From: Deltaproteobacteria bacterium
Lineage (GTDB): Bacteria > Bdellovibrionota_B > Oligoflexia > Oligoflexales > CAIYRB01
NCBI GenBank assembly: GCA_016874735.1
Contig: VGTI01000008.1
Location: 18,636-82,635 of the forward strand
Length of the DNA: 64,000 nucleotides
Direction of reading: 5' to 3'
The notes under the pieces are model-generated. The model worked only from the letters and a program-made list of their open reading frames with translations, was not told the origin of the DNA and did no database searches. Each line of letters begins with the position of its first letter. Within the stretch, counting starts at the first letter, position 1. Positions 1,318 through 25,233 of the stretch are shown piece by piece. A program made the position numbers and the translations under genes.

Positions 1318-2610
1318 TTGAAAATTTCGACCATGTCTTGCTGGCTCACCTGTCTCCTTCGGTCTCGTAGGATCCACCTGTGGATCTTGCCTACCCTAAG
1401 TTTTTGTCTGAGTTTCCTCATGACAGGGCTGGCTCATGCTAATCTCGACAAGAAGCTGATGTCCGTAACCATTCACGGACATACAAGAACGCATACCAGT
1501 TACCTTGAAAAACTTGTCCGTGATTGCCTAGACGGTGCCGCCTATCCGCAGCAGCCAGGGTATCTAGATAGCTACCTGACGCAGTGCATGATCAATACAA
1601 AGCTGTTTGAAAAGATCAAAATTGATTTCACCAATAACAGTATCGATGTTGAGGTGCAGGAACGTTGGACTCTGATTCCGATCCCCTATCTGCAAGTGAA
1701 TACCGGTAATTCACGTCAGGTTGGCCTGATCGTGCTCGAGTCAAATTTTGGTGGCGAGGGCAAGATTCTCGCTGGAGGAGCATCACTATCCAACGTCGGC
1801 GCAAGCTTTTTTGGCTACTACCAAGATCCCGCCATCTACTTCGGTAACTGGCGCGGTGATATCCTAGCCGACCATGTGAACCAGCAACTGCGTCTTTACC
1901 AAGGGCGTAAGATTGTCGACAGTTTCATTGAATCAACTAGCGGTGTCCTCGGCGGCTTTGGCTACAGATGGAGTAACCTAGTCACTAACGCCCACCTAGG
2001 TGCGCGGCAACGCGGGTTTGTCCAGGATAGCCAATTTACGCCTCCGACCAATCAAACATTCACTTATCTAAACGCATTGGCGGAATACTCAGACAAGGAT
2101 TTCCACTTCTACGGCAATCACGGCATGTCTTTAAAAGTGAATGCTACCCATCAACTCACACGCAGTGACGGAGTGGAACGCGCCGCTAATGCCGACTACC
2201 TATTTAGCTTTGAGCGCATTGTCATAAAACATGCCCTACAAGTCCAGGTTGCCGGCGGTACAGTGGTTGGCGGTGCTAAAGAGGACGCCTACAGGCTAGG
2301 CGGCAACAAAGGATTCCGCGGCGTCGAACGTTACGGCGTCTGGGCCGATCACTACCAAGTCGTAGCGATGGACTATCAAGTGCCCGTAGAGTCATTTGAC
2401 GATGGCACCGTGACCATCGGTCTATTTAATGATTTTGGCGTACTCCATCAGTCCGGTGCCAATGGGTACGCCACTCATTTTGATTCCTTTGGGGTCGCTA
2501 CTTACTTTTACCTGACGGCCATCGCTCTACCCGGGGTTGGGATAGAGTTTGGGTTGAACAGACAGTTCCAAGGACCTTTCGCCAATCTGACCATCGGGCT
2601 TTCCATCTAA
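1318..2610 (+). CDS. Omp85/BamA-family outer-membrane protein (short, single POTRA-like N-terminus)
   Basis: N-terminal hydrophobic signal ending HANL. POTRA-like segment (VTIHGHTRTHTSYLEKLV...IDVEVQERW). Gly/aromatic-rich alternating beta-strand C-terminal half typical of surface-antigen D15 barrels. Confidence 0.5.
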   Translation: MKISTMSCWLTCLLRSRRIHLWILPTLSFCLSFLMTGLAHANLDKKLMSVTIHGHTRTHTSYLEKLVRDCLDGAAYPQQPGYLDSYLTQCMINTKLFEKIKIDFTNNSIDVEVQERWTLIPIPYLQVNTGNSRQVGLIVLESNFGGEGKILAGGASLSNVGASFFGYYQDPAIYFGNWRGDILADHVNQQLRLYQGRKIVDSFIESTSGVLGGFGYRWSNLVTNAHLGARQRGFVQDSQFTPPTNQTFTYLNALAEYSDKDFHFYGNHGMSLKVNATHQLTRSDGVERAANADYLFSFERIVIKHALQVQVAGGTVVGGAKEDAYRLGGNKGFRGVERYGVWADHYQVVAMDYQVPVESFDDGTVTIGLFNDFGVLHQSGANGYATHFDSFGVATYFYLTAIALPGVGIEFGLNRQFQGPFANLTIGLSI

Positions 2611-2614
2611 CTAC

Positions 2615-4546
2615 CTAGCCGGTAACTTTGGTCGCTCCCTCAGGTGCTGCCGCCCTGTAAGCGTCGAGCCGTGCCTGCAAAACTGGGTCGTCGGCCTCAA
2701 TCTCGAGCTTCAATTGATTGAGGCGCGGCCAAGATTTGTTGAGAAAGCGCTCGGCGTAAGAGGCCCGCGACGGATCATCTTCCGCGTCCCAAACTAAACA
2801 CTGAGCTAAAGTGACCAAAGATTTGATCTCACAAATGCGCTCAGCATGAAGTAGTGCTGGGCCCACGTTCTCCATCTTGATCAAGTCGCGACTGAGCAAC
2901 TTAACCATGCGTAGTAAATCGGTAGGCTTAACCTCTGAGATGGTCTCGCGCACATTGGTCTTCAAAAGGCGCAGCAGTAGAGACATGATCGCTCCACTCT
3001 CGAGTTGTTTAGCCCGATAGAGCTTCTTGCGCAAGGGATCGCCTGGTTTAAAGGCCTGAACCCTAAGACCCAGCGAAGTTTCGATGAATTTTGTCGGATT
3101 ACGGATCACGTCCTTAAGCGTATCCTTGACACACATAAGTGCCTGGATGTGCGATGTACCCTCGTAAATGGCCAAAATTGGCGTCTCGCGTACCCACCAC
3201 TCGGCACGGTACTCACGGGTGTATCCATAGCCACCGTGCAGCGCTAAGCCTTCTTGCGCCATCTTGATCGCCCGCTCAGCGCCGTACCATTTTATCAGCG
3301 GAGTCATCTTACGTACACGCTTGCGCGCGACGCCGGCTTTACGCTCAATCTCATGACGCCGCTCGTCGCTGAGGCTTTTATCCTCGAGCAAACTCTCGCA
3401 TTGATACATCACGGACTGATTGTAGGCAGCCTGGTAACACACGCTGCGTAATGCCTGAATATCAACTTCCATGTCGAGCAGCTTCTCAGCTACCATCTCG
3501 TGGTGGGCGATGGGTACGCCCCAGGCCTTGCGTTGCTCACAGTATTCTTTGGCCAGTCGGTAGATGGATTCCATGTTACCTAACGCCTGAAAGCCCACCA
3601 CGATACGAGCATCGTTCATGAGGTGAAGCATGTGCTGGAAGCCCTTGCCGTTCTCACCCAAAAGGTAGGCCACCGAGCCATCGAAGTTGAGCTCGCAGGT
3701 TGCAGATCCATGGAGCCCTAGCTTGTCCTCAATCTTATTGACCGTGTAGTTGAACTTGACCTTGGGATCCTCCTGTCCGTCGAGGCGGAAAGGCGGCTTG
3801 CGCAAACACATGAACAAATTAAGGTTGTTAAGCCCCTTAGCACCCTTGGCATTCATGGCCAAAACGAGACAGACCTGGCTATTACCGTTGGAGATAAAGC
3901 GCTTAGAACCATAGAGGCGCCAAGTGCCATCGGGCTGTTGCTCCCCGTAGGTACGCACATTACCGAGATCACTACCAGCATCTGGCTCGGTCAAGGCCAT
4001 GCTGCCGGACCATTCGCCCGATACAATGCGATTCATGACGAAGTCTTTGATCTCTTCACTGGCAAACTTTTCTACAATCGCAGAAATACCACCGAACCAA
4101 ACGATATTGAGACCTGTCGAGGGACAGGCGCGCATGATCAACTCGTTGGCACAGGCCTCAACTAAGAATGGCAAATTCATCCCGCCAAACTTGGGTGCAG
4201 CGCTGAGGCTGGAGGCACCAAGCTGCAGCAGTTTCTGCACATTATCGACCACCGTTGGGGGCAGAACGACATCGCCGTCCTTGAGGTAAATGGGTTCCTT
4301 CTCCACCTGGGCTGCCCTGGGAGCAAGCTCCGTGCCGCACAACTCACCGAGCGAATCTAACGAGGTCAAAATAAGATCACGATACTCTTCAGCCGTGCTG
4401 CATCCAGATACCTCGCGCGCCTCTGCCGTCAGCCCCGCAAACAGTTCCTCGAAATTAATACGGCGCGTCAATTGATACTTGATATCGGGAGTGTCGGTGA
4501 AAAAATTGGCTTTCATTTGCATGGCCGGATTTCCCCATTTTTCCAT
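2615..4546 (-). CDS. long-form acyl-CoA dehydrogenase (FadE-like)
   Basis: ACAD signatures GSMALTEPDAGSDLG, FISNG and HGGYGYTREY, plus a C-terminal helical extension. Start uncertain; alternative ATGs at 4522 and 4516. Confidence 0.85.
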   Translation of the reverse strand: MEKWGNPAMQMKANFFTDTPDIKYQLTRRINFEELFAGLTAEAREVSGCSTAEEYRDLILTSLDSLGELCGTELAPRAAQVEKEPIYLKDGDVVLPPTVVDNVQKLLQLGASSLSAAPKFGGMNLPFLVEACANELIMRACPSTGLNIVWFGGISAIVEKFASEEIKDFVMNRIVSGEWSGSMALTEPDAGSDLGNVRTYGEQQPDGTWRLYGSKRFISNGNSQVCLVLAMNAKGAKGLNNLNLFMCLRKPPFRLDGQEDPKVKFNYTVNKIEDKLGLHGSATCELNFDGSVAYLLGENGKGFQHMLHLMNDARIVVGFQALGNMESIYRLAKEYCEQRKAWGVPIAHHEMVAEKLLDMEVDIQALRSVCYQAAYNQSVMYQCESLLEDKSLSDERRHEIERKAGVARKRVRKMTPLIKWYGAERAIKMAQEGLALHGGYGYTREYRAEWWVRETPILAIYEGTSHIQALMCVKDTLKDVIRNPTKFIETSLGLRVQAFKPGDPLRKKLYRAKQLESGAIMSLLLRLLKTNVRETISEVKPTDLLRMVKLLSRDLIKMENVGPALLHAERICEIKSLVTLAQCLVWDAEDDPSRASYAERFLNKSWPRLNQLKLEIEADDPVLQARLDAYRAAAPEGATKVTG

Positions 4547-4601: not shown

Positions 4602-5267
4602 ATGTCAAAATTATTACTTTTTTCTTTGCCGTCAGACCACAGATTGCGGTTTAATTCTTACATGATCATGCTAAACGCAATATGGTTATGGCTAGTAAGT
4701 ACAGCGTCCGGGGTGCCTGTCGAATATCAGGTCAACGCCCGCGAAGGCTGTCGGCAAATAGTCGCTGGAGCCTACGTCCAGGCCTATGACGAGCGCGAGC
4801 GGACACTGGCCTACGTCGCGACTCTAAAAGAGCAACTCAGTGCACTGAAAACGGCTAGCATCAAAGCTAAACAGGAACTCAGCACCATCGAGTCGGCTCT
4901 CGCTAAGCAAAACTACGATATCGATAAAGCCAGTAAACTCGACATGGCCGCTGCTAACGCCCGCGCCGTGTTAGATCAAACAGTGGAGTATCAGAAGATG
5001 CTCAACGAGGCCGAGAAGGCCGTCATTCCGGCACGGCAGCGCGAGCAAGACATCAAGCGTCAGTTCGGGAAGGTTTTTGAGATCGAGATGGTTAAGGATA
5101 ACGGCAAGGGTGGTTATCCTTTTCGCGTTGTCTACCGCACAGCTTGCCCTAAATACCGGGCGCTCTGTCCTTTACCCGCCGATCAGCAGGACGAGCTGCA
5201 GGCGCTCCGTATTGACGGAACACTTCCTGAGCCCTGCCGTAAATACGTAGGTCAGTCGAAGATTTGA
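4602..5267 (+). CDS. hypothetical secreted coiled-coil protein
   Basis: Long ORF with a signal-like MIMLNAIWLWLVSTASG (probable true start ATG 4662), a central heptad-like Ala/Lys/Glu-rich region and 4 Cys. No recognisable family. Confidence 0.4.
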   Translation: MSKLLLFSLPSDHRLRFNSYMIMLNAIWLWLVSTASGVPVEYQVNAREGCRQIVAGAYVQAYDERERTLAYVATLKEQLSALKTASIKAKQELSTIESALAKQNYDIDKASKLDMAAANARAVLDQTVEYQKMLNEAEKAVIPARQREQDIKRQFGKVFEIEMVKDNGKGGYPFRVVYRTACPKYRALCPLPADQQDELQALRIDGTLPEPCRKYVGQSKI

Positions 5268-5285
5268 TTTTCAGAAGTCCAAGGC

Positions 5286-5942
5286 TCAAAAGTCGATGGC
5301 AAAACTCATAGCCACTTCCCGCTCAAAGGGCTCGATCTTAGGGAATGCATAGTGGAACGTGTTGTACTCGGCCATGACGTAAAATTTTGGCGAAAAGCGT
5401 AAACCTAGGCCAGCACCGGCATGAGGCTTATAGGTCGGGCCAAAGATTTTATTAACCGGTTCCTTACCGGTCTCCTCGGTATCGATAATCCTTTGCGTCG
5501 CCGTCACTCCAGCCTTGGCACGCAAAATAAAAATCCAAAACCCGGGATCAATCGCCAATGAGAGACGCGCATTGCGCTGCGTTTCGGTGACCTTTAGGTC
5601 GTTATCAGGGTTATCACCGGACACACTCATGTCCTCGGCAAAATCAATTTCGCCGTATTCGTCTTTGGCATCCTGGACTTTTGACGTGGTCGTTAGTTTG
5701 CTCTGTCCTACACTTGCCTGCAGACTAAACAGGCGCCAAAAAGAAATCGCTCCGCGTAGACCGGCCTCTTGTCGCTGCTTGGACGTTGCTGTTTCTTTGC
5801 TCTTATCAGTGGTCTGCGGCTTAATTGAGGAGGTCGACCGGATACTGACATAGGGCGACAACTGCACTCTGGCCTGCGCCGATGACGCACTGAGAAATGC
5901 GACTGCGCCCAAAAACCAGGGTAAAAAACAAGTGGATTTCAT
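5286..5942 (-). CDS. small outer-membrane beta-barrel protein
   Basis: Signal peptide ...LSASSAQA. Alternating amphipathic strands. C-terminal aromatic residue (SFAIDF) typical of OMP barrels. Confidence 0.5.
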   Translation of the reverse strand: MKSTCFLPWFLGAVAFLSASSAQARVQLSPYVSIRSTSSIKPQTTDKSKETATSKQRQEAGLRGAISFWRLFSLQASVGQSKLTTTSKVQDAKDEYGEIDFAEDMSVSGDNPDNDLKVTETQRNARLSLAIDPGFWIFILRAKAGVTATQRIIDTEETGKEPVNKIFGPTYKPHAGAGLGLRFSPKFYVMAEYNTFHYAFPKIEPFEREVAMSFAIDF

Positions 5943-6095
5943 CGCTGGGTCCTCCCACCCGAACGATCGGCAGATTTGTCCCTCTCCTTAAACCAGAGTG
6001 CTCATCTATGGCATTTAAGTCATTGCTTATCTCAGTTTTTCACGGCGATCTGCCGATAGTATTGTGTGTGATTTGGTTTTGGGAGCAAAGTTAAG

Positions 6096-7499
6096 TTGAT
6101 CACAAAAACCACCAAATACATCAAAGAAATTAGATCCTGGATTGACAGGCTCTACGGCGAGGCGCCTGATGAGCTGCCGGATATCCGCAGCCGCATCTAT
6201 CAACATAGGCGGCAAACTGTCGACAGGATGGAGCCACACGTAAATCGGTTTGCTGTGTTTGGTTGTCCCGTCATCGGTACCCTGTGTTACCTTTTCGCAT
6301 CCCATCCAGCCAATCTGACTTTGGCTTTGACCTTTTTTAGCGCGGTTCCACTCGGTGTCTATATGCAGCGATTTCGTGGCATGGATCAGGTACAAAGTAG
6401 ATTTGTCACCTTCGTGATCGCGCCGCTCTTTATGATCGGTACGGCTATAGCCTTCTACCAAGTTTGGCAGGACTCGGTCGGGACCTGGTACAAAATGATG
6501 GGATCTTCTATCTATCTCCTCACTGGCGGTATCCTCATTCTGTTCAATTTTTCCTACCACGGTGAAGTTATCTTCAATCTCAGTATGCACCTCCTGCTGG
6601 GTGCCGTCGCGTGGCAGGGCGAGGGCTGGGCCCAATGGATGATCGTTCTGCTCATTGCTGACTTAGTGAATGCTGGCAGTAACTGTCTCTTCTTCCATAC
6701 CTTAGCCAAGCAATCTAAATATGAATTTTTCACTCAGAAGATGATGGCTGAGAATGATCGGCTGAAATTCGAAGCTTTCGAGCGCGAGGTCTCACTCGCC
6801 CAGCAAGTCCAGGAATCTTTAGGCTCCAAGATCGATAGTATCCGCTTTCGCGGCATGCAGGTGAATATGTATCAAGAGCGACACCAATCACTTAGTGGTG
6901 ACTGGATGGGTGCCCGCGTCCTGGCCAACGGTGACTTGGTTCTTGCCGTCGCTGATGTCACGGGCAAAGGGATCGCGGCGGCGATGGTAGCTCGCGCGAT
7001 CCATGCGCTCTGGGCGCGCGCCGAGTCTAGCACTCAATTCAAGCCTGAAATATGGCTGGAAGAAGTTAATAGCACCCTCAGATCGATGGTGGTCGATCAT
7101 CCTCAAACCGCTACGATTGGCGTTGCCGTAGTTAGCATTGGTAAGTTGAGTTACTACTCCTGCGGCCACATCCCTCTCTATTACAAATGCGCCAAGCTTA
7201 CCGATGGTCGGTTCCGCGGTGTCATGAAGCCGGGTGGCATCATTGGCATCGATCGCAACATGGTGATTCGGCCGGTCGAAGTGCAATTTACACCCAACGA
7301 TCTCTTATCAGTCATCATTGGCACGGACGGCGTGTTTCACCGAGGTACGCGCACCAGCCCGCGCGACCTTGAAGCATTCATCGCTGATCTCGGCGAAAAC
7401 GGTGTCAGAGCCATCCATAGAATCCCGTCCAATGACGACAAGATGCTCATTTGGGTGAATCGCGATAACAATGAAACTTCACTACCGGTCGCATCCTAA
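6096..7499 (+). CDS. membrane-anchored PP2C/SpoIIE-family serine phosphatase (RsbU-like)
   Basis: About 200 aa of multi-TM N-terminus, then the PP2C block LSGDWMGARV...LAVADVTGKGIAAAM...IGTDGV. TTG start at 6096; the true start may be internal. Confidence 0.8.
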   Translation: MITKTTKYIKEIRSWIDRLYGEAPDELPDIRSRIYQHRRQTVDRMEPHVNRFAVFGCPVIGTLCYLFASHPANLTLALTFFSAVPLGVYMQRFRGMDQVQSRFVTFVIAPLFMIGTAIAFYQVWQDSVGTWYKMMGSSIYLLTGGILILFNFSYHGEVIFNLSMHLLLGAVAWQGEGWAQWMIVLLIADLVNAGSNCLFFHTLAKQSKYEFFTQKMMAENDRLKFEAFEREVSLAQQVQESLGSKIDSIRFRGMQVNMYQERHQSLSGDWMGARVLANGDLVLAVADVTGKGIAAAMVARAIHALWARAESSTQFKPEIWLEEVNSTLRSMVVDHPQTATIGVAVVSIGKLSYYSCGHIPLYYKCAKLTDGRFRGVMKPGGIIGIDRNMVIRPVEVQFTPNDLLSVIIGTDGVFHRGTRTSPRDLEAFIADLGENGVRAIHRIPSNDDKMLIWVNRDNNETSLPVAS

Positions 7500-15411: not shown

Positions 15412-16374
15412 ATGTTGATCAAGATCCGTGACAAGTCGCATGCCAGCGAGCAAGATGTCACACCTAAAGGACTTTATCTCAATCGCCGCAGGATCATGGC
15501 AGGGCTGGCTCAAGGCACGGTCGCAGCTGGAGCAGCTGGCTTAACACTCCCGTTTTGGAGTGACCAGGCTCAAGCGGCGAAGACTTTTGAGGGTGTGACG
15601 CGTAACAACGCTTTCGCCATTAATGAAAAACTAACCCCGCTCAAGGATGTCACGAGCTACAACAATTTTTACGAATTTGGTACCGATAAAGAAGACCCCA
15701 AGAGATTCAGCGCTGGCTTTCGCACTAAACCATGGAAACTAGTGCTCGACGGCGAGTGCGAAAAACCCGGCACCTATGAACTCGAAGATTTCCTCAAACC
15801 GCAAAAACTTGAGGAGCGCATCTATCGGCTGCGCTGCGTCGAAGCCTGGTCGATGGTGATTCCGTGGATCGGTTTTCCTTTGGCGGATGTCATAAAGGCC
15901 GCTAAACCGCGCAGCAAAGCCAAATTTGTCGCCTTCACGACGCTACAGAATCCCGAGCAAATGCCGGGCCAAAAGCGCCCAATTTTGGATTGGCCTTACC
16001 GCGAGGGTCTCCGCCTCGATGAAGCCATGCACCCATTAACCATTCTGGCCGTCGGCCTGTACGGCGAAGTACTCCCCAACCAAAACGGTGCGCCGTTGCG
16101 TCTTGTCGTTCCGTGGAAGTATGGATTCAAAAGTATAAAATCCATCGTCAGAATCACTTTCACGACTGCGCAGCCCGTAACCTCCTGGAACATGATGGCG
16201 CCCGAAGAGTATGGCTTTTACTCCAACGTAAATCCTAAAGTTGACCACCCACGATGGTCACAGGCCAAAGAGCGCCGTATCGGTGAGCTATTTAAACGCG
16301 AGACACTCATGTTTAATGGCTACGACCAAGTCTCCGGCCTTTACCAAGGTATGGATCTCAAAAAAGATTATTGA
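15412..16374 (+). CDS. msrP: protein-methionine-sulfoxide reductase catalytic subunit MsrP (YedY)
   Basis: Tat-like [25 protein letters not shown] and CVEAWSM motifs. ATG 15412 is preceded by GGAG; the longer ORF from 15307 overlaps the HIT gene. Confidence 0.85.
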
Positions 16375-17003
16375 TGCGTCCCAACATAAAACAAAAATTA
16401 CTGTTGATGAAAACAGTGCTGCTATCAGTACTTTTGTTGCCACTAGTTCATTTGGCACTAGCTTTTATGAACGATGATCTCGGCGCCAACCCCGTTGAGA
16501 GAATGACTCACGTCACTGGTGATTGGGCCTTACGGATCCTGCTCCTGTCACTATGCATGACACCCGTGCAACTCCTCCTCAAATGGCGCAAAGCTATACT
16601 GATGCGACGCCTCATTGGACTTACAGCCTTTGGTTATGCGGCCCTGCACTTCGGTGTTTATCTAGTTTTTGACCAAGAACTAAGCCTTGTCGGTACCATG
16701 ATCGATGTCAAAAAAAGACCGTACATCACGGCGGGATTTGCCGCACTCTGCCTGATGGTGCCGCTTGCCATTACCTCAACTGATCGCCAGATCAAGAAAA
16801 TGGGGAGCAAGAGGTGGCAGATGTTACACAAATCCGTGTACTTGGTTACCACGTTGGCGATTGTTCATTATTGGTGGCTAGTCAAGGCAGACATCACCAA
16901 ACCGCTCATATATGGGTTTATCTTTGCCGCATTGATGTTCCTGCGTCTTGGCAAACATAGCCTTAAGATGCGTATGCCTCTTCTTAAGAGGCCACCTCAG
17001 TAA
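16374..17003 (+). CDS. msrQ: MsrQ (YedZ) heme-binding membrane subunit
   Basis: Ferric-reductase-like 6-TM protein with conserved His residues (HFGVY, VHYWW). TGATG overlap with the msrP stop; the ORF opens at TTG 16371. Confidence 0.8.
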   Translation: MRPNIKQKLLLMKTVLLSVLLLPLVHLALAFMNDDLGANPVERMTHVTGDWALRILLLSLCMTPVQLLLKWRKAILMRRLIGLTAFGYAALHFGVYLVFDQELSLVGTMIDVKKRPYITAGFAALCLMVPLAITSTDRQIKKMGSKRWQMLHKSVYLVTTLAIVHYWWLVKADITKPLIYGFIFAALMFLRLGKHSLKMRMPLLKRPPQ

Positions 17004-19278
17004 CTACCTCATCAACCGCCTGATGTATCTCATGTCCGGCTAGTGCTGCGCTAAGAGATCTAAATATAAAATCGCACTGCCTGGATCCACCACCGTGGAT
17101 CTTGAAGCCGTGCTCGTTGCCGCTGTCAGACCGTTTACTCCACCGCACTTCCAAAGCGAATTCCGCCAGTAAAGCTTCTGCTAACAATGCATTTACCGCC
17201 GGATCTGAGGTCTCAATACGCGTTGAAATAATGGTTTGACGACCCAGGAGCCGGTCACCGATCGCGCGGAATCCATAACGCGAAAAATCCTGGACAACAA
17301 ATTCACCCACGTCGCTCTTGAGCCTGATTGCGCCACCGGATCTGAGCCTAAACCTCTGGTCTAGCGAGCGCATACCAATACGGTCCAAAAACACAGTCTC
17401 GGCGCGCTGCAGTAAATCCCTCGCCTCGCTAAAGGGATTAAATTCAAATGCCTGTAGTAACTTGGTCTGATGCTTGACGGCAATGGAGATGGGTGTAAAC
17501 ATGGACACATCTACCTCGGCGAGTTGGAGCTGCTCAGCTACGGCTGCGCTTACCATGATTTTGTAGGGACTGCAGGCCTCTTTTAAGCGGCTAGCGAAAT
17601 TAACACCAGCGCCGATCACTGTGAAATCAAGACGGTCTTGGTCACCGAGATTACCTACCGTCACCCTTGCCGTGTGTATGCCAATGCGCAGCGGCATGAT
17701 CATCTTACTGTCGCCGCAATCGAGAGCTCGTTTCACATTCATTTCCTGAATCCGCGATGCCGCCTTAAAAGCATCCAAAGACGGATCGAATGACTTACCT
17801 ACCCTCTTGTACCCGAATAAAGCCAAAACCCCAGCACCCATCGAACGATCAATCGAACCATTGTGCTCCTCAATGATTTTGAAAACATCATCCATGACAA
17901 GGGCTAGCTCTTGATAAATTCTCTCTTGTGACTGACCAACAGCAATTTCAGAAAAAGAGGCAATATCGATGAATATCATCGAAATATCCAATTGACTTGT
18001 ATTAAAATGCCCCGAAAACGACTCGTTGAGCAGTGCATTGAGTCGCACAAGATCACCATCTTTGCGGAACGCATTGATGATCTGCTTGTGGCGATTCTCC
18101 ATGTATCTAAGACGCAAACTCATTGACAACGAAAATGTGGCAGCACTTAATATAGCCCCAAAATGCAGCGCGCACTCCCGCACCTGAGTCGACTCCAAGA
18201 TTCCAACTTCAGCGAGAAGAAAGACCACGCCACCAACTAAGTAAAACGATATCGCTGTAGCAAAAAGAAAGACGAAACTCTTATTCATGTACCCCTGGTA
18301 TATGATTAAGTTGCGCGCAATTGCACCACCGGTGGCAAGCAGACCGATTTTAAAAATGATATCTGGACTGGCAAAGGCAAAACTCGCTGCCACAGCAATA
18401 GAAACATAAAGATGGATTTTTAAGTAACGATGGAGGCGGGGGAAGTTACGTCTATAGTCAAAAAATCTCCCCGCAAAAAGATAGATGAATACAAAGAAAA
18501 GACCAAACGCGACCGCAGCCATACGAAATTCGAACCCGCGCCCGATCGCTAGCTGCGGCAGTACTACTTTTGTAAAATGGGTAAAATATAGTGTGATAAT
18601 TACATTAGACGATAACCACATTGCCAAATAGGCAAAAGATAAATCTCTCAAAATAAAGAACAGGACTAATACATAAATGGTAAATCCAATGAGACAGCCA
18701 TTAAGAATTGCCCACTGAATTGTTAATTTCCGGACATAGACTCGATAATCACTCTCACGATAGACTTTGGGGACCACCGCCACATCGCCCTGAGACTCCG
18801 TTTTCACATAAAGCGTCGACGCAGCGGTCTTAGAACCAAACTGAAAATGATACCCATGGTCCGACTGACTCGCGAATGTTTCCGGGTAATCATCTCCCAC
18901 AGTGATATGGCGTTCGATATCCGCATTGGATACGAGATAAAAATCGATACGTGAAAAATCGAGGATTTTCGCCCCATGTAAACTCGCGATCCAATCCCCC
19001 TCTTGCTCAGGGAGTTCATCCAAGTCCAGTCGATACCAGTGGATCACCTTACCACCGTCAGGCTTCATTTTGCTTTTGCCATCAGTCGATTCCCAGGCCG
19101 AGGCGGGAAGTCTGATGACCTGCGCGATGTCTGTCGTTGTACCATCTAAGACCAAGTGATTAACAGGAACTGATTGATGTATGTCACTCCGAAAATCGGG
19201 TACCAGCAGTAACAACCCCAAAAAAAATACTGCTGGCAGACGCGACCATATTCCCAACATTGATGACTTAAGTCCCAT
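16984..19278 (-). CDS. 7TMR-DISM sensor / class III nucleotidyl cyclase / PilZ fusion protein (paralog retaining Asn-Arg but lacking the second metal Asp)
   Basis: Periplasmic N-domain with HWYRLDL, then 7 TM helices. Cyclase block IFIDIASFS...SMGAGVLALFG...RIGIHTARV...DFTVIGAGVNFASRLK. C-terminal PilZ motifs RFRLR and DFSRYG. Confidence 0.8.
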   Translation of the reverse strand: MGLKSSMLGIWSRLPAVFFLGLLLLVPDFRSDIHQSVPVNHLVLDGTTTDIAQVIRLPASAWESTDGKSKMKPDGGKVIHWYRLDLDELPEQEGDWIASLHGAKILDFSRIDFYLVSNADIERHITVGDDYPETFASQSDHGYHFQFGSKTAASTLYVKTESQGDVAVVPKVYRESDYRVYVRKLTIQWAILNGCLIGFTIYVLVLFFILRDLSFAYLAMWLSSNVIITLYFTHFTKVVLPQLAIGRGFEFRMAAVAFGLFFVFIYLFAGRFFDYRRNFPRLHRYLKIHLYVSIAVAASFAFASPDIIFKIGLLATGGAIARNLIIYQGYMNKSFVFLFATAISFYLVGGVVFLLAEVGILESTQVRECALHFGAILSAATFSLSMSLRLRYMENRHKQIINAFRKDGDLVRLNALLNESFSGHFNTSQLDISMIFIDIASFSEIAVGQSQERIYQELALVMDDVFKIIEEHNGSIDRSMGAGVLALFGYKRVGKSFDPSLDAFKAASRIQEMNVKRALDCGDSKMIMPLRIGIHTARVTVGNLGDQDRLDFTVIGAGVNFASRLKEACSPYKIMVSAAVAEQLQLAEVDVSMFTPISIAVKHQTKLLQAFEFNPFSEARDLLQRAETVFLDRIGMRSLDQRFRLRSGGAIRLKSDVGEFVVQDFSRYGFRAIGDRLLGRQTIISTRIETSDPAVNALLAEALLAEFALEVRWSKRSDSGNEHGFKIHGGGSRQCDFIFRSLSAALAGHEIHQAVDEVVTEVAS

Positions 19279-21568
19279 AATTCCCCCTTAACGGGGCGTC
19301 ACGGACGACTTTCATGTGCGTGGAAAAAACATGAATGAGAAGATCTACTTGCTTACTATTGCCGCCAAGTAATTTTATGCCATGCTCATATCCAGCCTCG
19401 GTCTTACGACTCCATCGGACCTCGACCACTAACTGATCCATGTATTTTTGTCGGAGTTTTTGATTAAGAATCTCTACACCCGTATCAATCTCGAGTTCCA
19501 TAATCACTTTTTGGGCAAAATAATGCTCGGAAATGACTCGCATGCCACTTGCGGAAAAATCTAACACCTGAAACTTCGCATGCGGCGCCTTGAGTGTGAT
19601 GACCTGTGTGCTAACAAGCGCATGGCGCGCCTCACGAGGAAAAACCCCAACCTGCGAAAAATACACTGATATGGCAGTCCTTAGATCCTCAGGCCGTGTC
19701 TTTTCCAAGCTAAACTCATAAGCTAGTGCCAGATTTTTTTGGTGTTTCAGGGAAACATTGACCGGAGAAAAAACGTCAGATTCAAGTCCACTTGCAACCA
19801 GTTTTTCGAAGCACATTGCGCTTATCATTACATTAAAAGGACTGCAGGCTTGCTCAAGATTACTGACAAAATTGACGCCATGGCCGACCATGGTAAAGTC
19901 AACGCGAAGGCCTCCACCTAGGTTAGCAAGTAACACTGTATCCGAATGGATGCCTATGCGCACTGGCAGCAACCAATCCTTTTCGTACTGTCCTTGTTTT
20001 TTTATCCGCAGTGCCTCATCTATCAGCATATTTTGAATGGCTACAGCGGCATGAAAGGCATCGCGGGCATGACCGGCACTGCTTTCATTTTTGCCCGTAA
20101 AAAAACAAAGTAATCCGTCACCCAACGAGCGATCGATAACCCCATGGTTGGCGACAATCAGACGCGTCAGTGAATTAAGTCGTCGGGACAGGTCGGCAAA
20201 TATATCAGAAGAAGCATCACGGTCTGCAACTAGCGAGAACGCCATGATATCGATATACATGATCGTGACATCAATTTCGCGACTGCTAATCGGTGCCAGA
20301 TTAAGCTCTGATTCGGTCAACGACTCCGTTAATTTGTTGCTTTCGCCGCGCAGTGACCGAACGATGCCACGATGCTTAAGCTCGAGCTGTCGAATGCGAT
20401 GCGTGGCTGCGGCTGACAGGAAGATGAAACCAAAGATGACGCCAGCATCGGCAAAATAATGGGCAAAATAACTAGCTGGGATGAAGCCTAACCAGGAACC
20501 CATCGAGATCACTACCGCCGGTAGAAATCCGCTCAGAAACATTCTGTAGTAAACCAGACTTCTGATCGGCCAGCGCATGATATCAACTATGGCTGTTGTA
20601 CAAACAGCGACATTAGTTACCGTGACCATCACGATCAGAATCGGCGACGCTCTAAAAATGGGGGCAAGCACAACCTCCAAAGCCGTGAAGGCTATGACAA
20701 ACTTTGCCCACGAGCTGAGATGATGACGGCCGAGGTCTCTAACGACATAACTGTGGTTCAGGAACATCAGTAGAAGTTGAGGGATCAGAATGATCTCCGC
20801 GATGATCAGGACGTGCACCGAAATATCGCGACTGAAATCGGGCCAAATGTAAAAAATCTGGCCACTAAAAAACAGTGGGAAGAATGCGTTGCCAATCTGT
20901 GAGGCTACCAACAACGCGTAGATCAGTTTACGTACGGTGAAGAGTAGGAGTAGGTTGTACATACAAAAGCTTAGATAAATCCCCGCCATAGCAGCGTGGA
21001 CCCAACTCCGAAGGGTCATCAGGGCGCGATGGTTCGCTTCCACGCCTATGAAAAGAGGCGCCACTATTGCCACGTCTGTCTCGAGACGCAGGTACAAAGT
21101 ACGATCTTGAGTGGTACTAGGGAGGAATTTGATGGTAGCAAATGGCGACTCGGTTTGACCCGGACGCTCTAAGCCACCGAAAGCCGACGCAACCACGGCT
21201 TGGGCCTCAACCAAATAAAAATCAACTTTACGGATCAGATGGTAACCAATTTCCGCGATGATTGGCTTTGGATCCGCCTGGGAGCGGACTTGGATCCGGT
21301 ACCAAACAGGCCGCACACTGCCCATAACTCCGAAGTGATGCTTGGCTTCTTTAGCCTCCCACGCCGACTCCGGTTGGTTTTTTATGTCGTCAATCGAGCT
21401 GATGTCCGTGTCTAACGGCCCAACGAAGCGCGCTGCACGGTAGTAAGTACCATCAAAACCGGCCGGATCAGGAGCAACCAGTGCAATGGTCAGAAAAACC
21501 AACGCGGGCGAGATCGCCATCAGTCGGTATGCCCAATCGGGAGGATTTCTGAACCAAGTCCGTATCAC
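19268..21568 (-). CDS. 7TMR-DISM sensor / class III nucleotidyl cyclase / PilZ-like fusion protein (paralog retaining both metal Asp but lacking the transition-state Arg)
   Basis: Same architecture as the downstream paralog. VWYRIQV, 7 TM, MYIDIMAFS...SLGDGLLCFF...RIGIHSDTV...DFTMVGHGVNFVSNLE. C-terminal REARH...DFSASG. The stop overlaps the downstream gene's start by 11 nt. Confidence 0.8.
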   Translation of the reverse strand: MIRTWFRNPPDWAYRLMAISPALVFLTIALVAPDPAGFDGTYYRAARFVGPLDTDISSIDDIKNQPESAWEAKEAKHHFGVMGSVRPVWYRIQVRSQADPKPIIAEIGYHLIRKVDFYLVEAQAVVASAFGGLERPGQTESPFATIKFLPSTTQDRTLYLRLETDVAIVAPLFIGVEANHRALMTLRSWVHAAMAGIYLSFCMYNLLLLFTVRKLIYALLVASQIGNAFFPLFFSGQIFYIWPDFSRDISVHVLIIAEIILIPQLLLMFLNHSYVVRDLGRHHLSSWAKFVIAFTALEVVLAPIFRASPILIVMVTVTNVAVCTTAIVDIMRWPIRSLVYYRMFLSGFLPAVVISMGSWLGFIPASYFAHYFADAGVIFGFIFLSAAATHRIRQLELKHRGIVRSLRGESNKLTESLTESELNLAPISSREIDVTIMYIDIMAFSLVADRDASSDIFADLSRRLNSLTRLIVANHGVIDRSLGDGLLCFFTGKNESSAGHARDAFHAAVAIQNMLIDEALRIKKQGQYEKDWLLPVRIGIHSDTVLLANLGGGLRVDFTMVGHGVNFVSNLEQACSPFNVMISAMCFEKLVASGLESDVFSPVNVSLKHQKNLALAYEFSLEKTRPEDLRTAISVYFSQVGVFPREARHALVSTQVITLKAPHAKFQVLDFSASGMRVISEHYFAQKVIMELEIDTGVEILNQKLRQKYMDQLVVEVRWSRKTEAGYEHGIKLLGGNSKQVDLLIHVFSTHMKVVRDAPLRGNYGT

Positions 21569-21624: not shown

Positions 21625-22128
21625 CTAGCCTTGGGAGTTGGCTAATTCATATTTAGCTGCGCTATCTCCGCGAATCTTGTAGGAAATCTTGCCATATTGG
21701 CTGTCCGTCGTACTGATATAGAGCCGCCCCCTGATCCACACTGGACCCCAAGAACGCTTGGGTGCCTGACCACTGCTCATCCGCACCATGACCATTTGAT
21801 TGGGCGGAGGAGGAGGCACATGGATGCAGGCCTGAGGACTAGGTACCAATAGAAATTCTGAAAGCCCCTGATCATCGTCTTCAAGCGGCACGACGAATCC
21901 CGGTACCTTGACCGGTTGACCATCAAGTTTAGCTAAGGCTGCTGGGATCTTTCCCGTCACTAAATCAAGCTCACGCAGCTGCAGCCAGTCGACTTCTTGG
22001 TAGGCATCATCGGCCAGTACTGGCTCTGACTCCGCGCTCAGTATATGCCAAGTCCAGTAGCCAGCTAGCACCAACACCGGAATCACGGCTAGTAAACAAA
22101 GAACCATTTTTTTGCGCAAAGGAATCAT
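21625..22128 (-). CDS. DUF3299-like periplasmic protein (ABC-exporter accessory)
   Basis: N-terminal TM anchor and the characteristic FLLVPSPQACIHVPPPPPNQMVMV block. 4-nt overlap with the upstream permease gene. Confidence 0.7.
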   Translation of the reverse strand: MIPLRKKMVLCLLAVIPVLVLAGYWTWHILSAESEPVLADDAYQEVDWLQLRELDLVTGKIPAALAKLDGQPVKVPGFVVPLEDDDQGLSEFLLVPSPQACIHVPPPPPNQMVMVRMSSGQAPKRSWGPVWIRGRLYISTTDSQYGKISYKIRGDSAAKYELANSQG

Positions 22129-23402
22129 AAGCGAATCACCAGTCCGTCACTTAAACTGTGGCGATAGGCACGCCAGGCGGGAATCGCACCAAGAATGAGT
22201 CCGCACATCATTATGGCGCCAAAATAAAAAATCTCGACGGACGAGAACGATTCAACCGCAAGATGAAACCCGAAATGATTAGCCACAACGGGCTGCATCA
22301 CCCATAGTAAAACCCGCGTGAGTATGATCCCTAGCACTGCGCCAGAACCGACCAGTATCCCAGCTTCAGTGACAAGGAGGCCGAAAATGAGTCCGGGCGT
22401 GGCGCCTAAACTTCGGAGAATAGCCATCTCCCGACGCCTTTCGCTTAAGGAATTGTAAACGGATACCAGCATCCCGGTGAGACCGACTAAGACCACAAAT
22501 ACAGCAACTAGCCTTAGAGCATCCTCGCCGTAAGCTAACCCCTGCCAAAGCTCGTCCAACGCCACACCAGGCATCACTGCCGTGAGTGGCTCAGTTTTGA
22601 AGTCATTCCAAAAACGCTGCATCGTCAAAATATCCATTTTTGATTTAGCACCAACAAAGACGGCCGAAATCTCTTCGATAGCAAAATTCTTTGCCGCCAA
22701 CTCAGACGTCCTTAGTGCTTGATCACGTCGCGGAGGCGCTCCGTCTTCCCAACCATGATGAATGGCCTCGAGTCCCGCTAAAGGTATGAAGATTGTTCGG
22801 TCAACCGGACTACCCGTCGGCTGCAAAATACCGGTCACATGGAACGGATGATCCTCGTGTTTGTGGAAAGAAACCTCACCCACGCCGTGACTGAGCGCTA
22901 GCTTTTCACCAAGTCCGTAATCTAGGCGGCGCGCAACAGCACTGCCAATGACCGCGGCGAAGAGATCGCCACTCCCGGCATCGGCACTAAATCCCCCCGC
23001 GGCAAACTCAAGTTTTTGCTGACGTCGCGTCTGAAAATGTTTGAAAAAATCAGACGTCGTTGCCACAACACGGTAGCTTCGGTGACTGTCCCCCATCGTG
23101 ATCGGCACCGCCCAGGCCGTTTTCGGATCGGCTTGAATCGCTTTAAAAGTAGCAAATTTCATGTTAGCCGTCGGACTGCCGATATGAAAAACAGCATTGA
23201 GCAGCAGCGGCAAAGTGCCCCCGCGCGAGCCCACGATCAAATCAGTCTGACTGATAGCGCCGGTGAAACTTGCATGGGCACCGACGCGAATCCGTTCTAC
23301 AAGCATCAAAAGCGCCGTCGAGAGCCCAATCGACAGGATCGTCAAGCTGGTGACTAGGCGCCGCATGGCCAAGGATTTCCATGCAAGTTTGCACAATATC
23401 AC
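22125..23402 (-). CDS. FtsX/MacB-type ABC transporter permease
   Basis: N-terminal TM, a large periplasmic domain, and a C-terminal FtsX-like 3-TM bundle (RRREMAILRSLGA...). Confidence 0.8.
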   Translation of the reverse strand: MILCKLAWKSLAMRRLVTSLTILSIGLSTALLMLVERIRVGAHASFTGAISQTDLIVGSRGGTLPLLLNAVFHIGSPTANMKFATFKAIQADPKTAWAVPITMGDSHRSYRVVATTSDFFKHFQTRRQQKLEFAAGGFSADAGSGDLFAAVIGSAVARRLDYGLGEKLALSHGVGEVSFHKHEDHPFHVTGILQPTGSPVDRTIFIPLAGLEAIHHGWEDGAPPRRDQALRTSELAAKNFAIEEISAVFVGAKSKMDILTMQRFWNDFKTEPLTAVMPGVALDELWQGLAYGEDALRLVAVFVVLVGLTGMLVSVYNSLSERRREMAILRSLGATPGLIFGLLVTEAGILVGSGAVLGIILTRVLLWVMQPVVANHFGFHLAVESFSSVEIFYFGAIMMCGLILGAIPAWRAYRHSLSDGLVIRL

Positions 23403-24142
23403 GGACGTTGCTCCCTAAAACGCTGCGCTATCCGGTTCAGGGCAGGAAGCGAGCACTTGCGATGAAAATGGCGCCCTAGACTTTGGTCATGGCTGACAAA
23501 AATCACCGTCGCCTGGGAGTCATCGGCAATCGAACTGAGGAGCGCGATAAACTCATCACGGTGATCGACATCTAATGCTGAAGTAGGTTCATCCGCAATG
23601 AGTAGTCGCGGAGCTCCGATAAGAGCGCGGGCAGCTGCTACGCGCTGTTGCTCACCGACACTAAGCTCAGTTACCGACTTATGCAGGAGATGTTTGATAT
23701 CGAGTCGTACTGCTAGTGCCGTGGCAGCTGCAGTGGGCGAGGCTCCTGCAAGATTAGCCTGGCGTGCTCTGCTGATCGTACACGGCAGGATGATATTATC
23801 CATGACATCAAGATAAGGAATCAGATTGAACATCTGAAATATGTAACCGATATGATCGCCGCGAAATAGATCTCTCGATCGCGCACTCATGCCGCCCAGT
23901 GCGACACCATCGACGGCGACTTGGCCACTGTCTGGGCTAATGATGCCAGACAGAAGCCCAAGCAAGGTGGTCTTGCCACTGCCGCTTGGGCCGTGAATAA
24001 AGACTCGCTCGCCCCGACTCACCTTGAAGGCGGGAATATCAAGAATCTCCCGCCCTGCTTTGTAGGAGTACTTAAGCGAGCTGATTTCGATTGCCGGAAT
24101 CGCTTGGTTCAAATGCGCCTCGAAGCTGAGGATTTTGGTCAC
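23399..24142 (-). CDS. ABC transporter ATP-binding protein (LolD/MacB-type)
   Basis: Walker A GPSGSGKTTLL, signature LSVGEQQRV, Walker B LLIADEPTSALD. 4-nt overlap with the permease gene. Confidence 0.9.
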   Translation of the reverse strand: MTKILSFEAHLNQAIPAIEISSLKYSYKAGREILDIPAFKVSRGERVFIHGPSGSGKTTLLGLLSGIISPDSGQVAVDGVALGGMSARSRDLFRGDHIGYIFQMFNLIPYLDVMDNIILPCTISRARQANLAGASPTAAATALAVRLDIKHLLHKSVTELSVGEQQRVAAARALIGAPRLLIADEPTSALDVDHRDEFIALLSSIADDSQATVIFVSHDQSLGRHFHRKCSLPALNRIAQRFREQRP

Positions 24143-24237: not shown

Positions 24238-25233
24238 CTAAACGTAGACTTCGTCCTTACTCATAATGGTAATCTTGCCGTCAGCCGCTAGAGCCTGAGC
24301 TAAATCGGCGAGTTGTTGCTGGGCGGCTTGAACCTCTTGCAGGCGCACTTTAGGTAGAGCTGCGACATCGTCGCGTAGTAATTTTGCGGCACGCTCGGAG
24401 AGGTTCTTATAGATGTGCCGACTGGTAGCGTCGTCTGCCTGTTTCAGGGCCAGGCGCAAAGTCGCCGCGGGCACCTGGGCCAGCAGAGCCTGCATGTCGC
24501 GATCACTGAGGCGGGTTAGATCGGCGAAAGTGAAGAGTTGCCTGCGGAGTTGCGCCGCCATTGTGGGGTCACGCCCCTCTATATCTACGATAAGTTTTTC
24601 AGCCTGAGCCTGTGGCATGACATGCAGCAGCCCAACCAGCTTGGCTGGACCCCCGACCGCGTGTGCGGCGATCTGAGAACGGCTGCGACTCTCCTTCAGA
24701 GCCTCAGCGACAGCTCTTAAACTTGCCAAATCGACATCACCAAGCTTGGCCAACCGATGGACTGCCTCCGTTTGCAGGGCTGGCGGCAGTAAACCGATCG
24801 CTTTGGCTGCCTGCTGGGGTAGACAGTGCGCGAGCACCACAGCCATGGTTTGAGGAGCCTCAGCCTGTAACCATTTGGCCATCGCCTCTGGTGCCATTTC
24901 ACCAACTAGTTCAGCTAACTCCTGAGATGCGACCGCTGCCTCACTCACTAAGGTAGCAGCCTCACGCGACCGCCCGGCTAGCTGCAGAATACGCTGCGCG
25001 GCTTCCGGCGTGCCGGTCAGCTGCGGCCGGTAATTGACTAATGTCTGGTAAAACTCCCCCGACACCATTTGGACGACCGAGCCGTCAACCTGTCCCAGCC
25101 GACTCATGGCTGCCGCGATGCGGCTTACCTCGGCCGGCTGCAGGTGCCCGATAATCTGACTGGCTACGTCCTCCCCTAAACTCAGGAGCAGGATAGCCGC
25201 CTTCTCAGCACTAGACAGTTTGACTTCGGTCAT
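24238..25233 (-). CDS. fliG: flagellar motor switch protein FliG (orphan copy in this window)
   Basis: 331 aa, colinear by eye with E. coli FliG. Matching blocks: AAILLLSLGED, EAPQTMAVVLAH (EHPQ block), LFTFADL, NLSERAAKLLRDD (torque-helix R/DD), KVRLQEV, and C-terminal DEVYV. Confidence 0.85.
   Translation of the reverse strand: MTEVKLSSAEKAAILLLSLGEDVASQIIGHLQPAEVSRIAAAMSRLGQVDGSVVQMVSGEFYQTLVNYRPQLTGTPEAAQRILQLAGRSREAATLVSEAAVASQELAELVGEMAPEAMAKWLQAEAPQTMAVVLAHCLPQQAAKAIGLLPPALQTEAVHRLAKLGDVDLASLRAVAEALKESRSRSQIAAHAVGGPAKLVGLLHVMPQAQAEKLIVDIEGRDPTMAAQLRRQLFTFADLTRLSDRDMQALLAQVPAATLRLALKQADDATSRHIYKNLSERAAKLLRDDVAALPKVRLQEVQAAQQQLADLAQALAADGKITIMSKDEVYV

Follow-up and report, generated by a model that had tools for sequence, protein, structure and literature searches.

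Class III cyclases are head-to-tail dimers, in which each active site is built from the metal-binding Asp pair of one subunit and the base-recognition and transition-state residues of the other. That such enzymes can be heterodimers with a single live site and a dead one is textbook knowledge for animals (transmembrane adenylyl cyclases and soluble guanylyl cyclase, sGC), and bacterial class III cyclases are, to our knowledge, treated as homodimers. Two adjacent genes, here called A and B, were analysed on the minus strand of a 64,000-nt stretch of DNA (the window, to which all positions refer; orthologous loci are named L001 and so on). They probably encode the two subunits of a heterodimer like that of the mammalian cyclase domains C1 and C2, with one active and one dead site and cyclic AMP (cAMP) as the probable product. 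Complementary residue loss in class III heterodimers leaves one active and one dead site (PMC2576301). Mammalian C1 donates the metal Asp pair and a phosphate-binding Arg, and C2 the base-recognition residues together with Asn, Arg and Lys (PMC2576301). Heterodimeric class III cyclases have been described ‘in particular’ for higher eukaryotes (PMC8815786), and the origin of the pseudo-heterodimer has been placed in an early eukaryote (PMC9552081). In the literature searched, where absence is no proof, no natural class III heterodimer encoded by two bacterial genes was found.

Mammalian C1/C2 resemble the heterodimer proposed for A/B in being paralogous head-to-tail domains with one active site and a degenerate pseudo-symmetric pocket (PMC2576301). 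The order is also shared, the upstream gene A being C1-like and the downstream gene B C2-like. Unlike the mammalian enzyme, which is a fused class IIIa chain with two sets of six transmembrane helices, A/B are two class IIIb genes with 7TMR-DISM anchors, DISMED2 sensors, C-terminal PilZ domains and Arg in place of Lys, and nothing in A/B points to forskolin-like or G-protein regulation. A preliminary description of this DNA had called the pair C1/C2-like. The one-live/one-dead layout is supported; with A/B in class IIIb and C1/C2 in class IIIa, the likeness would be convergent and not one of lineage. Judged by class and by relatives, the origin of A/B is independent of mammalian C1/C2, through a duplication within an Oligoflexia-like bacterial family. 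sGC alpha/beta and chytrid NeoR with RGC1 or RGC2 share with A/B two separately encoded paralogous subunits and, as proposed for A/B, have a heterodimeric class III core, but are eukaryotic guanylyl cyclases, whereas A/B are bacterial. In the fungus, too, the rhodopsin-guanylyl cyclase genes lie in a cluster (PMC8815786). No residue relevant for cyclisation is lost in RGC1 or RGC2 (PMC8815786), so the need for a heterodimer there does not come from complementary loss, unlike the need proposed for A/B. CyaC of Spirulina platensis (1WC0) and CyaB of Pseudomonas aeruginosa (3R5G) share with A/B the motif spacing and the specificity Thr, and are the best sequence and structure matches; they carry all catalytic residues as symmetric two-site homodimers, whereas one essential residue is missing from each of A and B, and both have Arg for Lys. 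In work of Guo et al. from 2001 on Mycobacterium tuberculosis Rv1625c, metal-Asp and transition-state-Arg mutants were reportedly inactive alone and active when mixed. Those mixed mutants were a laboratory construct of one gene; A/B have the same arrangement in two diverged natural genes, conserved and recurrent.

Catalytic columns were assigned by phmmer of each protein against PDB sequences and with a 16-sequence family profile. The cyclase domains of A and B both scored above the curated PF00211 cut-off of 21.9 bits (Table 1). The top PDB matches of both proteins were Spirulina CyaC (1wc0/1wc1) and P. aeruginosa CyaB (3r5g), with E = 1e-12 to 1e-16. The family profile again placed CyaC and CyaB on top (E about 1e-28), and the match to mammalian C1 was weak (E about 0.04, phmmer against PDB sequences). 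An AlphaFold2 model of B residues 396-764 (predicted local distance difference test 80.5, predicted template modelling (TM) score 0.79) had CyaC as its best structural match, at a target-normalised TM score of 0.83-0.85. The loop of metal Asp 2 reads IDRSLGDG in A and IDRSMGAG in B, against VDKFVGDA in CyaC, IDKFVGDC in CyaB and IDEFMGDG in the guanylyl cyclase Cya2. The Asn/Arg helix reads GVNFVSNLE in A and GVNFASRLK in B, against SVNIAARLQ in CyaC and EVNLASRLE in CyaB. The motif spacings (Asp four residues after Lys, Asn seven after Thr, Arg four after Asn) agree with the CyaC alignment. The key residues are D440, R480, D484, R555, T559, N566, N570 and K608 in A, and D438, R478, A482, R549, T553, N560, R564 and K602 in B. 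The full catalytic set of two metal Asp with transition-state Asn and Arg is present in neither single chain, and is complete only across A and B.

The preliminary description had been aligned by hand. Its metal Asp 1 in both domains was borne out by the CyaC, CyaB and Cya2 alignments. It had also given Asp 2 as kept in A and replaced by Ala in B, and the Asn...Arg pair as intact in B with Arg changed to Asn in A; in both cases the column and the codon proved exact. Profile alignment to solved cyclases, which it had proposed as a check, returned the same Asp and Arg columns. Arg instead of Lys at the first specificity position of both domains was likewise found (IDRS against VDKF/IDKF). Its second specificity residue, the Asp of DFT, was wrong: the residue is the Thr of DFT, seven residues before the Asn, as in class IIIb. 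Thr559 of A and Thr553 of B fall on the Thr of CyaC ‘DFTAIG’, in a column invariant in the family. We take this Thr to be the equivalent of CyaC Thr1139, the class IIIb hallmark, and by this residue A and B are classed as class IIIb cyclase domains, the CyaC/CyaB-like and sAC-like subclass. Related canonical single genes have Arg or Lys at the first specificity position, and Cya2 has Glu. Because the class IIIb Thr is present and the canonical relatives carry Arg or Lys at the first position, cAMP is the most likely product.

In the proposed mechanism, A and B would be co-expressed paralogous receptor cyclases working as a head-to-tail heterodimer with one competent site. In each protein a periplasmic 7TMR-DISMED2 sensor and seven transmembrane helices precede a class IIIb cyclase domain, with a PilZ domain at the C-terminus. 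The live site would take metal Asp440, Asp484 and phosphate Arg555 from A, and Arg478 (Lys-equivalent), Thr553, Asn560, Arg564 and probably Lys602 from B. The reciprocal pocket, formed by B Asp438 and Ala482 with A Arg480, Thr559, Asn566 and Asn570, would be dead, and neither homodimer would have a complete site. The sensor domains are only 17-20% identical, so a heterodimer would place a single active site under two different periplasmic inputs. The two PilZ-type domains may add control by cyclic di-GMP (c-di-GMP). That the Asp pair of A and the Asn/Arg of B rebuild one site and leave the other dead had been proposed in the preliminary description, and is supported by the complementary signatures, the column scan, the convergent losses and the mirror-tree presented below. 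From the same residue patterns we infer that the heterodimer would be, as was also proposed there, obligate.

The complementary pattern was found in five orthologous lineages. Signatures are given in the order Asp1, Lys-equivalent, Asp2, phosphate Arg, Thr, Asn, transition-state Arg, gamma-phosphate Lys, for the upstream gene and then the downstream gene. They read DRDRTNNK / DRARTNRK in the window, DRDRTNSK / DRARTNRK in both L001 and L002 (= L009), DRDRTYNN / DRAHTNRK in L003-5, and DRDRTHSR / DRSHTNRK in L029 and L078, the last being the sole new locus from the metagenome scan. The gene order FliG, ABC ATPase, FtsX permease, DUF3299, A, B, then convergent MsrQ/MsrP, HIT and HAD, is kept across independent metagenome contigs. 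Cyclase-domain identity within an orthologue set is 47-89%. The predicted live-site residues (Asp, Asp and Arg of A; Arg, Thr, Asn, Arg and Lys of B) are invariant across the orthologues, including those with cyclase domains only 47-54% identical. At the predicted dead site, A varies at the transition-state position (N, S, S, N or S), from Asn to Tyr or His and from Lys to Asn or Arg, and B varies at Asp 2 (A, A, A, A or S) and from phosphate Arg to His. Further decay is confined to dead-site residues, namely the Asn and Lys of A and the phosphate Arg of B. Since it is kept in all five orthologous pairs, the complementary pattern is, on this comparison, more than chance. An unbiased scan covered every cyclase-domain column with a conservation of 90% or more among 40 canonical relatives. 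Deviations of A-type proteins were confined to the half with Asn, Arg and Lys (the Asn-x-x-x-Arg helix and the Lys-His hairpin), and those of B-type proteins to the Asp-loop half (the DRSxGDG loop).

Complementary losses were also found outside this locus, in two further groups. Exhaustive phmmer with B against 1.84 billion representatives gave 322 relatives at E up to 1e-30; the best 150 were typed, and the genomic context was examined for five degenerate members among them. The pairs read DRDRTHRN / NRDTTNRK in L079, DRDRTHQD / SRDLTNRK in L081, DRDRGHLD / RRDTTNRK in L083 and, with the gene order reversed, SRDRSNRK / DRDKGSRG in L082; P0062 (DRARTNRK) likewise occupies the downstream position in a tandem pair. 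In L079, L081 and L083 the downstream gene lacks metal Asp 1 and keeps Asp 2, and the upstream gene lacks Asn, in some cases also Arg, Lys or Thr. In L082 it is the upstream gene that lacks Asp 1, and the downstream gene lacks Thr, Asn and Lys. A rule that the transition-state Arg is always lost in the upstream gene was rejected because of L082, so that the rule is one of complementarity and not of polarity. In every one of the nine complementary lineages for which both genes have sequence, the Asp-losing member keeps Asn, Arg and Lys, and its partner keeps both Asp and lacks at least one of Asn, Arg and Lys. By neighbour joining (NJ) each of these groups forms its own upstream-downstream sister pair, which suggests separate duplications, with a support of only 54-62%. 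Because the substitutions differ between groups, complementary degeneration is convergent whatever the duplication history. A rough count of the mutual exclusivity of Asp loss and Asn/Arg loss, among the best 150 of the 322 relatives, gave an overlap of 2 against about 3 expected by chance. Two further residues follow the division between half-sites. In 40 canonical relatives the Arg of PVRIGIH and the Glu of SRLE are each 100% conserved. Every C1-like member retains both, and the three independent C2-like groups have all replaced them (Arg by C/S/K, Glu by K/N/T). Convergent losses would in this way assign residues to half-sites without mutagenesis: A Arg537 and Glu572 behave as partners of the metal-Asp half, and may work with it or set partner specificity.

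Homodimers with reduced or altered chemistry were considered, with A as a weak cyclase, B as a non-catalytic nucleotide-binding receptor or regulator, and adjacency reflecting tandem duplication and shared regulation. A does keep all catalytic residues but the Arg. Tandem pairs with both members essentially intact also exist (L007, L013, L018, L025 and others), so the tandem arrangement alone does not require heterodimers. This explanation gives no account, however, of the invariance in B-type proteins of Asn, Arg, Lys, Thr and the Lys-equivalent Arg, all useless in a B homodimer, or of complementary losses between neighbours in three separate lineages through different substitutions. We regard it as rather unlikely.

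The wider family provides the setting of the proposed one-site heterodimer. Relatives of A and B were found in Oligoflexus, Pseudobacteriovorax, Bdellovibrio and related metagenome-assembled genomes (MAGs). A scan of representative genomes gave 68 loci, in which 102 open reading frames (ORFs) with a cyclase domain were typed. Tandem same-strand pairs with the order 7TMR-DISM, cyclase, PilZ are common. Close relatives include canonical single genes, pairs with two intact members, half-degenerate pairs and fully complementary pairs. The transition-state Arg of the upstream gene alone is lost in L006, L010 and L016 (Gln) and in L022 and L023 (Asn), and the fully complementary state within this series is that of the window clade. 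Intact L020 and L027 group with the L022 clade at 99% bootstrap, so the transition-state Arg was lost in at least three separate events. The NJ tree separates upstream from downstream genes as sister groups (bootstrap 46% and 74%) with mirrored internal topologies. Pairwise distances of the partners correlate at r = 0.96, a value reached in 0 of 2000 partner permutations, which argues that the pairs are inherited as units. It is quite possible that the family is a natural record of a symmetric homodimeric enzyme becoming an obligate single-site heterodimer.

The mirrored trees bear also on the idea of promiscuous heterodimers among many paralogous 7TMR-DISM cyclases, forming a combinatorial receptor network. 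Such a network would fit the strong expansion of the family, one MAG alone having at least six tandem pairs in addition to single genes, and the 37-41% identity between A-type and B-type cyclase domains. The mirrored upstream and downstream trees, the overlapping or abutting genes and the conserved synteny point instead to cognate partners. As an explanation in its own right promiscuity is unlikely; it is compatible with, and not opposed to, a one-site heterodimer of A and B. The MAG concerned is Loclat_bin-10810, whose pairs (L010, L012, L018, L023, L027, L029) are at differing stages of active-site asymmetry. The family is also expanded in AM_0764 (L009, L014, L017, L021, L024-L026, L028, L030, L031, L060).

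That A and B are pseudo-enzymes, with dead cyclase domains as dimerisation or scaffold modules and output through the PilZ domains or partner proteins, is very unlikely: each does lack a residue regarded as essential, and the family has members degenerate in both half-sites (P0061 and P0107, with YREHTSAN and DNNRAKIK), but free decay should strike both half-sites, contrary to the nine complementary lineages and to the invariance of live-site residues across the most diverged orthologues. P0061 and P0107 themselves, by these signatures, are probable true pseudo-cyclases.

Several points weigh against the one-site heterodimer of A and B. The column of Lys602/Lys608 lies outside every alignment to a solved structure. 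The role of the phosphate Arg is less certain, since its column is variable also among pairs that look intact in other respects. An A homodimer lacks the transition-state Arg alone, so residual, partial activity is possible, and in genomes with many paralogous pairs non-cognate pairing is possible. Scans for promoters and terminators gave chance-level results and are silent on an operon. All sequences come from uncultured organisms.

If the reading is right, complementary loss arose at least three times via different substitutions, and bacteria reached the C1/C2 solution independently, at a stage preceding gene fusion. The pair in the window would then synthesise cAMP under two sensors and possibly under gating by c-di-GMP, and its dead pocket may serve regulation. 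A natural pair with preserved intermediates would give a tractable system for the evolution of catalytic asymmetry and of obligate heteromers after duplication, and would address the use of a degenerate site and the control of one active site by two sensors.

The positions of the features are listed in Table 1. A and B are identical to proteins of a MAG labelled ‘Deltaproteobacteria bacterium’. Their Pfam architecture is common to both (7TMR-DISMED2, 7TMR-DISM_7TM, Guanylate_cyc), and PF07696 and PF07695 were above their cut-offs in each, as expected of 7TMR-DISM receptors. The 16-sequence family profile also matched the RetS/histidine-kinase DISMED2 structures 3jyb, 9jpe and 2xbz. NCBIfam gave a family match for neither A nor B. 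The two proteins are only 26% identical over the full length and 37% in the cyclase domain, which makes the duplication old. The overlap of the two genes is consistent with co-transcription and translational coupling, and the L001 pair has the same 11-nt overlap. Across family pairs the distance from the upstream stop to the first in-frame downstream start is -11 to about +100 nt, and at most 15 nt in most; the exception to this tight spacing is one implausible upstream start candidate in L001.

Table 1. Features of the A/B locus, with positions in the window
Feature	Position	Strand	Details
Gene A	19268..21568	-	766 aa; GTG start; AGGAGGAG upstream of start; identical to FJ146_06515
Gene B	16984..19278	-	764 aa; ATG start; identical to FJ146_06510
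A-stop/B-start overlap	19268..19278	-	11 nt, ATGGGACTTAA
Shine-Dalgarno-like AAGGGGGAA	19281..19289	-	inside 3' end of A, 2 nt upstream of B ATG; read from sequence
Cyclase homology domain of A	19754..20272	-	residues 433-605; PF00211 35.0 bits; CyaC E = 1.9e-14
Cyclase homology domain of B	17476..17988	-	residues 431-601; PF00211 46.6 bits; CyaC E = 5e-16
A Asp440 (GAT)	20249..20251	-	metal Asp 1, predicted live site
A Asp484 (GAC)	20117..20119	-	metal Asp 2, predicted live site
A Arg537	19958..19960	-	Arg of PVRIGIH
A Arg555 (CGC)	19904..19906	-	basic residue before DFT, tentative phosphate-binding Arg; basic in all C1-like members
A Asn570 (AAT)	19859..19861	-	transition-state Arg column, predicted dead site; orthologues S, S, N, S
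A Glu572	19853..19855	-	Glu of SRLE; B has Lys566 in this column
B Arg478 (CGT)	17845..17847	-	Lys-equivalent base-recognition position, predicted live site
B Ala482 (GCT)	17833..17835	-	metal Asp 2 column, predicted dead site; orthologues A, A, A, S
B Thr553 (ACA)	17620..17622	-	class IIIb specificity position, predicted live site
B Asn560...Arg564 (AAT...CGC)	17587..17601	-	transition-state pair, predicted live site
B Lys602 (AAG)	17473..17475	-	tentative gamma-phosphate Lys, beta7-beta8 hairpin, predicted live site
PilZ domain of A	19334..19633	-	residues 646-745; DxSxxG present; N-terminal motif RxxR
PilZ-like domain of B	17059..17361	-	about residues 640-740; DFSRYG present; first Arg of RxxxR displaced, RxxxxR
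ABC ATPase, MacB/FtsX permease, DUF3299	21625..24142	-	directly upstream of A; mutual 4-nt overlaps; 56-nt gap to A
FliG	24238..25233	-	complete gene (N, M, C domains); adjoins ABC genes
MsrQ-like gene	16371..17003	+	convergent with B
Overlap of MsrQ-like and B 3' ends	16984..17003		20 nt

The PilZ match of A (PF07238) was borderline in the whole protein, and reached 26.7 bits in the isolated C-terminus against a cut-off of 22.5. Of 29 family members, 20 gave a PilZ match at E up to 0.1. DxSxxG is invariant in the family. In the VCA0042 alignment an invariant Arg of the family falls on the second position of RxxxR; the first Arg is displaced, giving RxxR in A and RxxxxR in B. Reading ‘RFRLR’ of B as a canonical RxxxR was rejected, as the VCA0042 alignment shows that the invariant Arg is the second of the motif. 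The VCA0042 match of a C-terminal-domain profile against PDB sequences was sub-threshold (E = 0.7), so the PilZ assignment rests on Pfam. With RxxxR non-canonical and DxSxxG invariant, control by c-di-GMP through these domains is plausible at most. Throughout the family the class III cyclases carry PilZ as a C-terminal fusion, which suggests that c-di-GMP is directly coupled to the synthesis of cyclic mononucleotides. A cyclase-PilZ fusion was not found described in the literature searched, and absence there is no proof.

The ABC ATPase, permease and DUF3299 genes accompany the pair in L001-L005, and possibly form one operon with A and B. This block is conserved only with the fully complementary pair and not with the other paralogous pairs; there may be a functional link between transporter and sensor cyclase. 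The FliG gene has the same position in L002-L005, and the two ORFs just upstream of it are non-flagellar (stretch examined about 14-25 kb). On the other side, every orthologous locus retains the MsrP/MsrQ pair in synteny. The G+C content falls to 0.45 in 18001..20000, the region of the B/A junction, against 0.49-0.58 elsewhere in the window.

Two further loci of the family were noted. In L008 (3..1640 and 1621..2121) the upstream partner of P0009 seems to be split by a frameshift into a 545-aa fragment and a 166-aa ORF, reflecting either an assembly error or a decaying partner gene. A divergent head-to-head 7TMR-DISM cyclase pair lies at 2095..4353 (-) and 4678..6966 (+) of L039, with the same coordinates in L040. 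Its signatures are DKGRTVRK or DKDRTVRK against DRDRTVKK, with Val at the Asn column in both members; one member has Gly at Asp 2 in L039, and the other has Lys at the transition-state Arg. The L039/L040 pair may be a further asymmetric pair in another arrangement.

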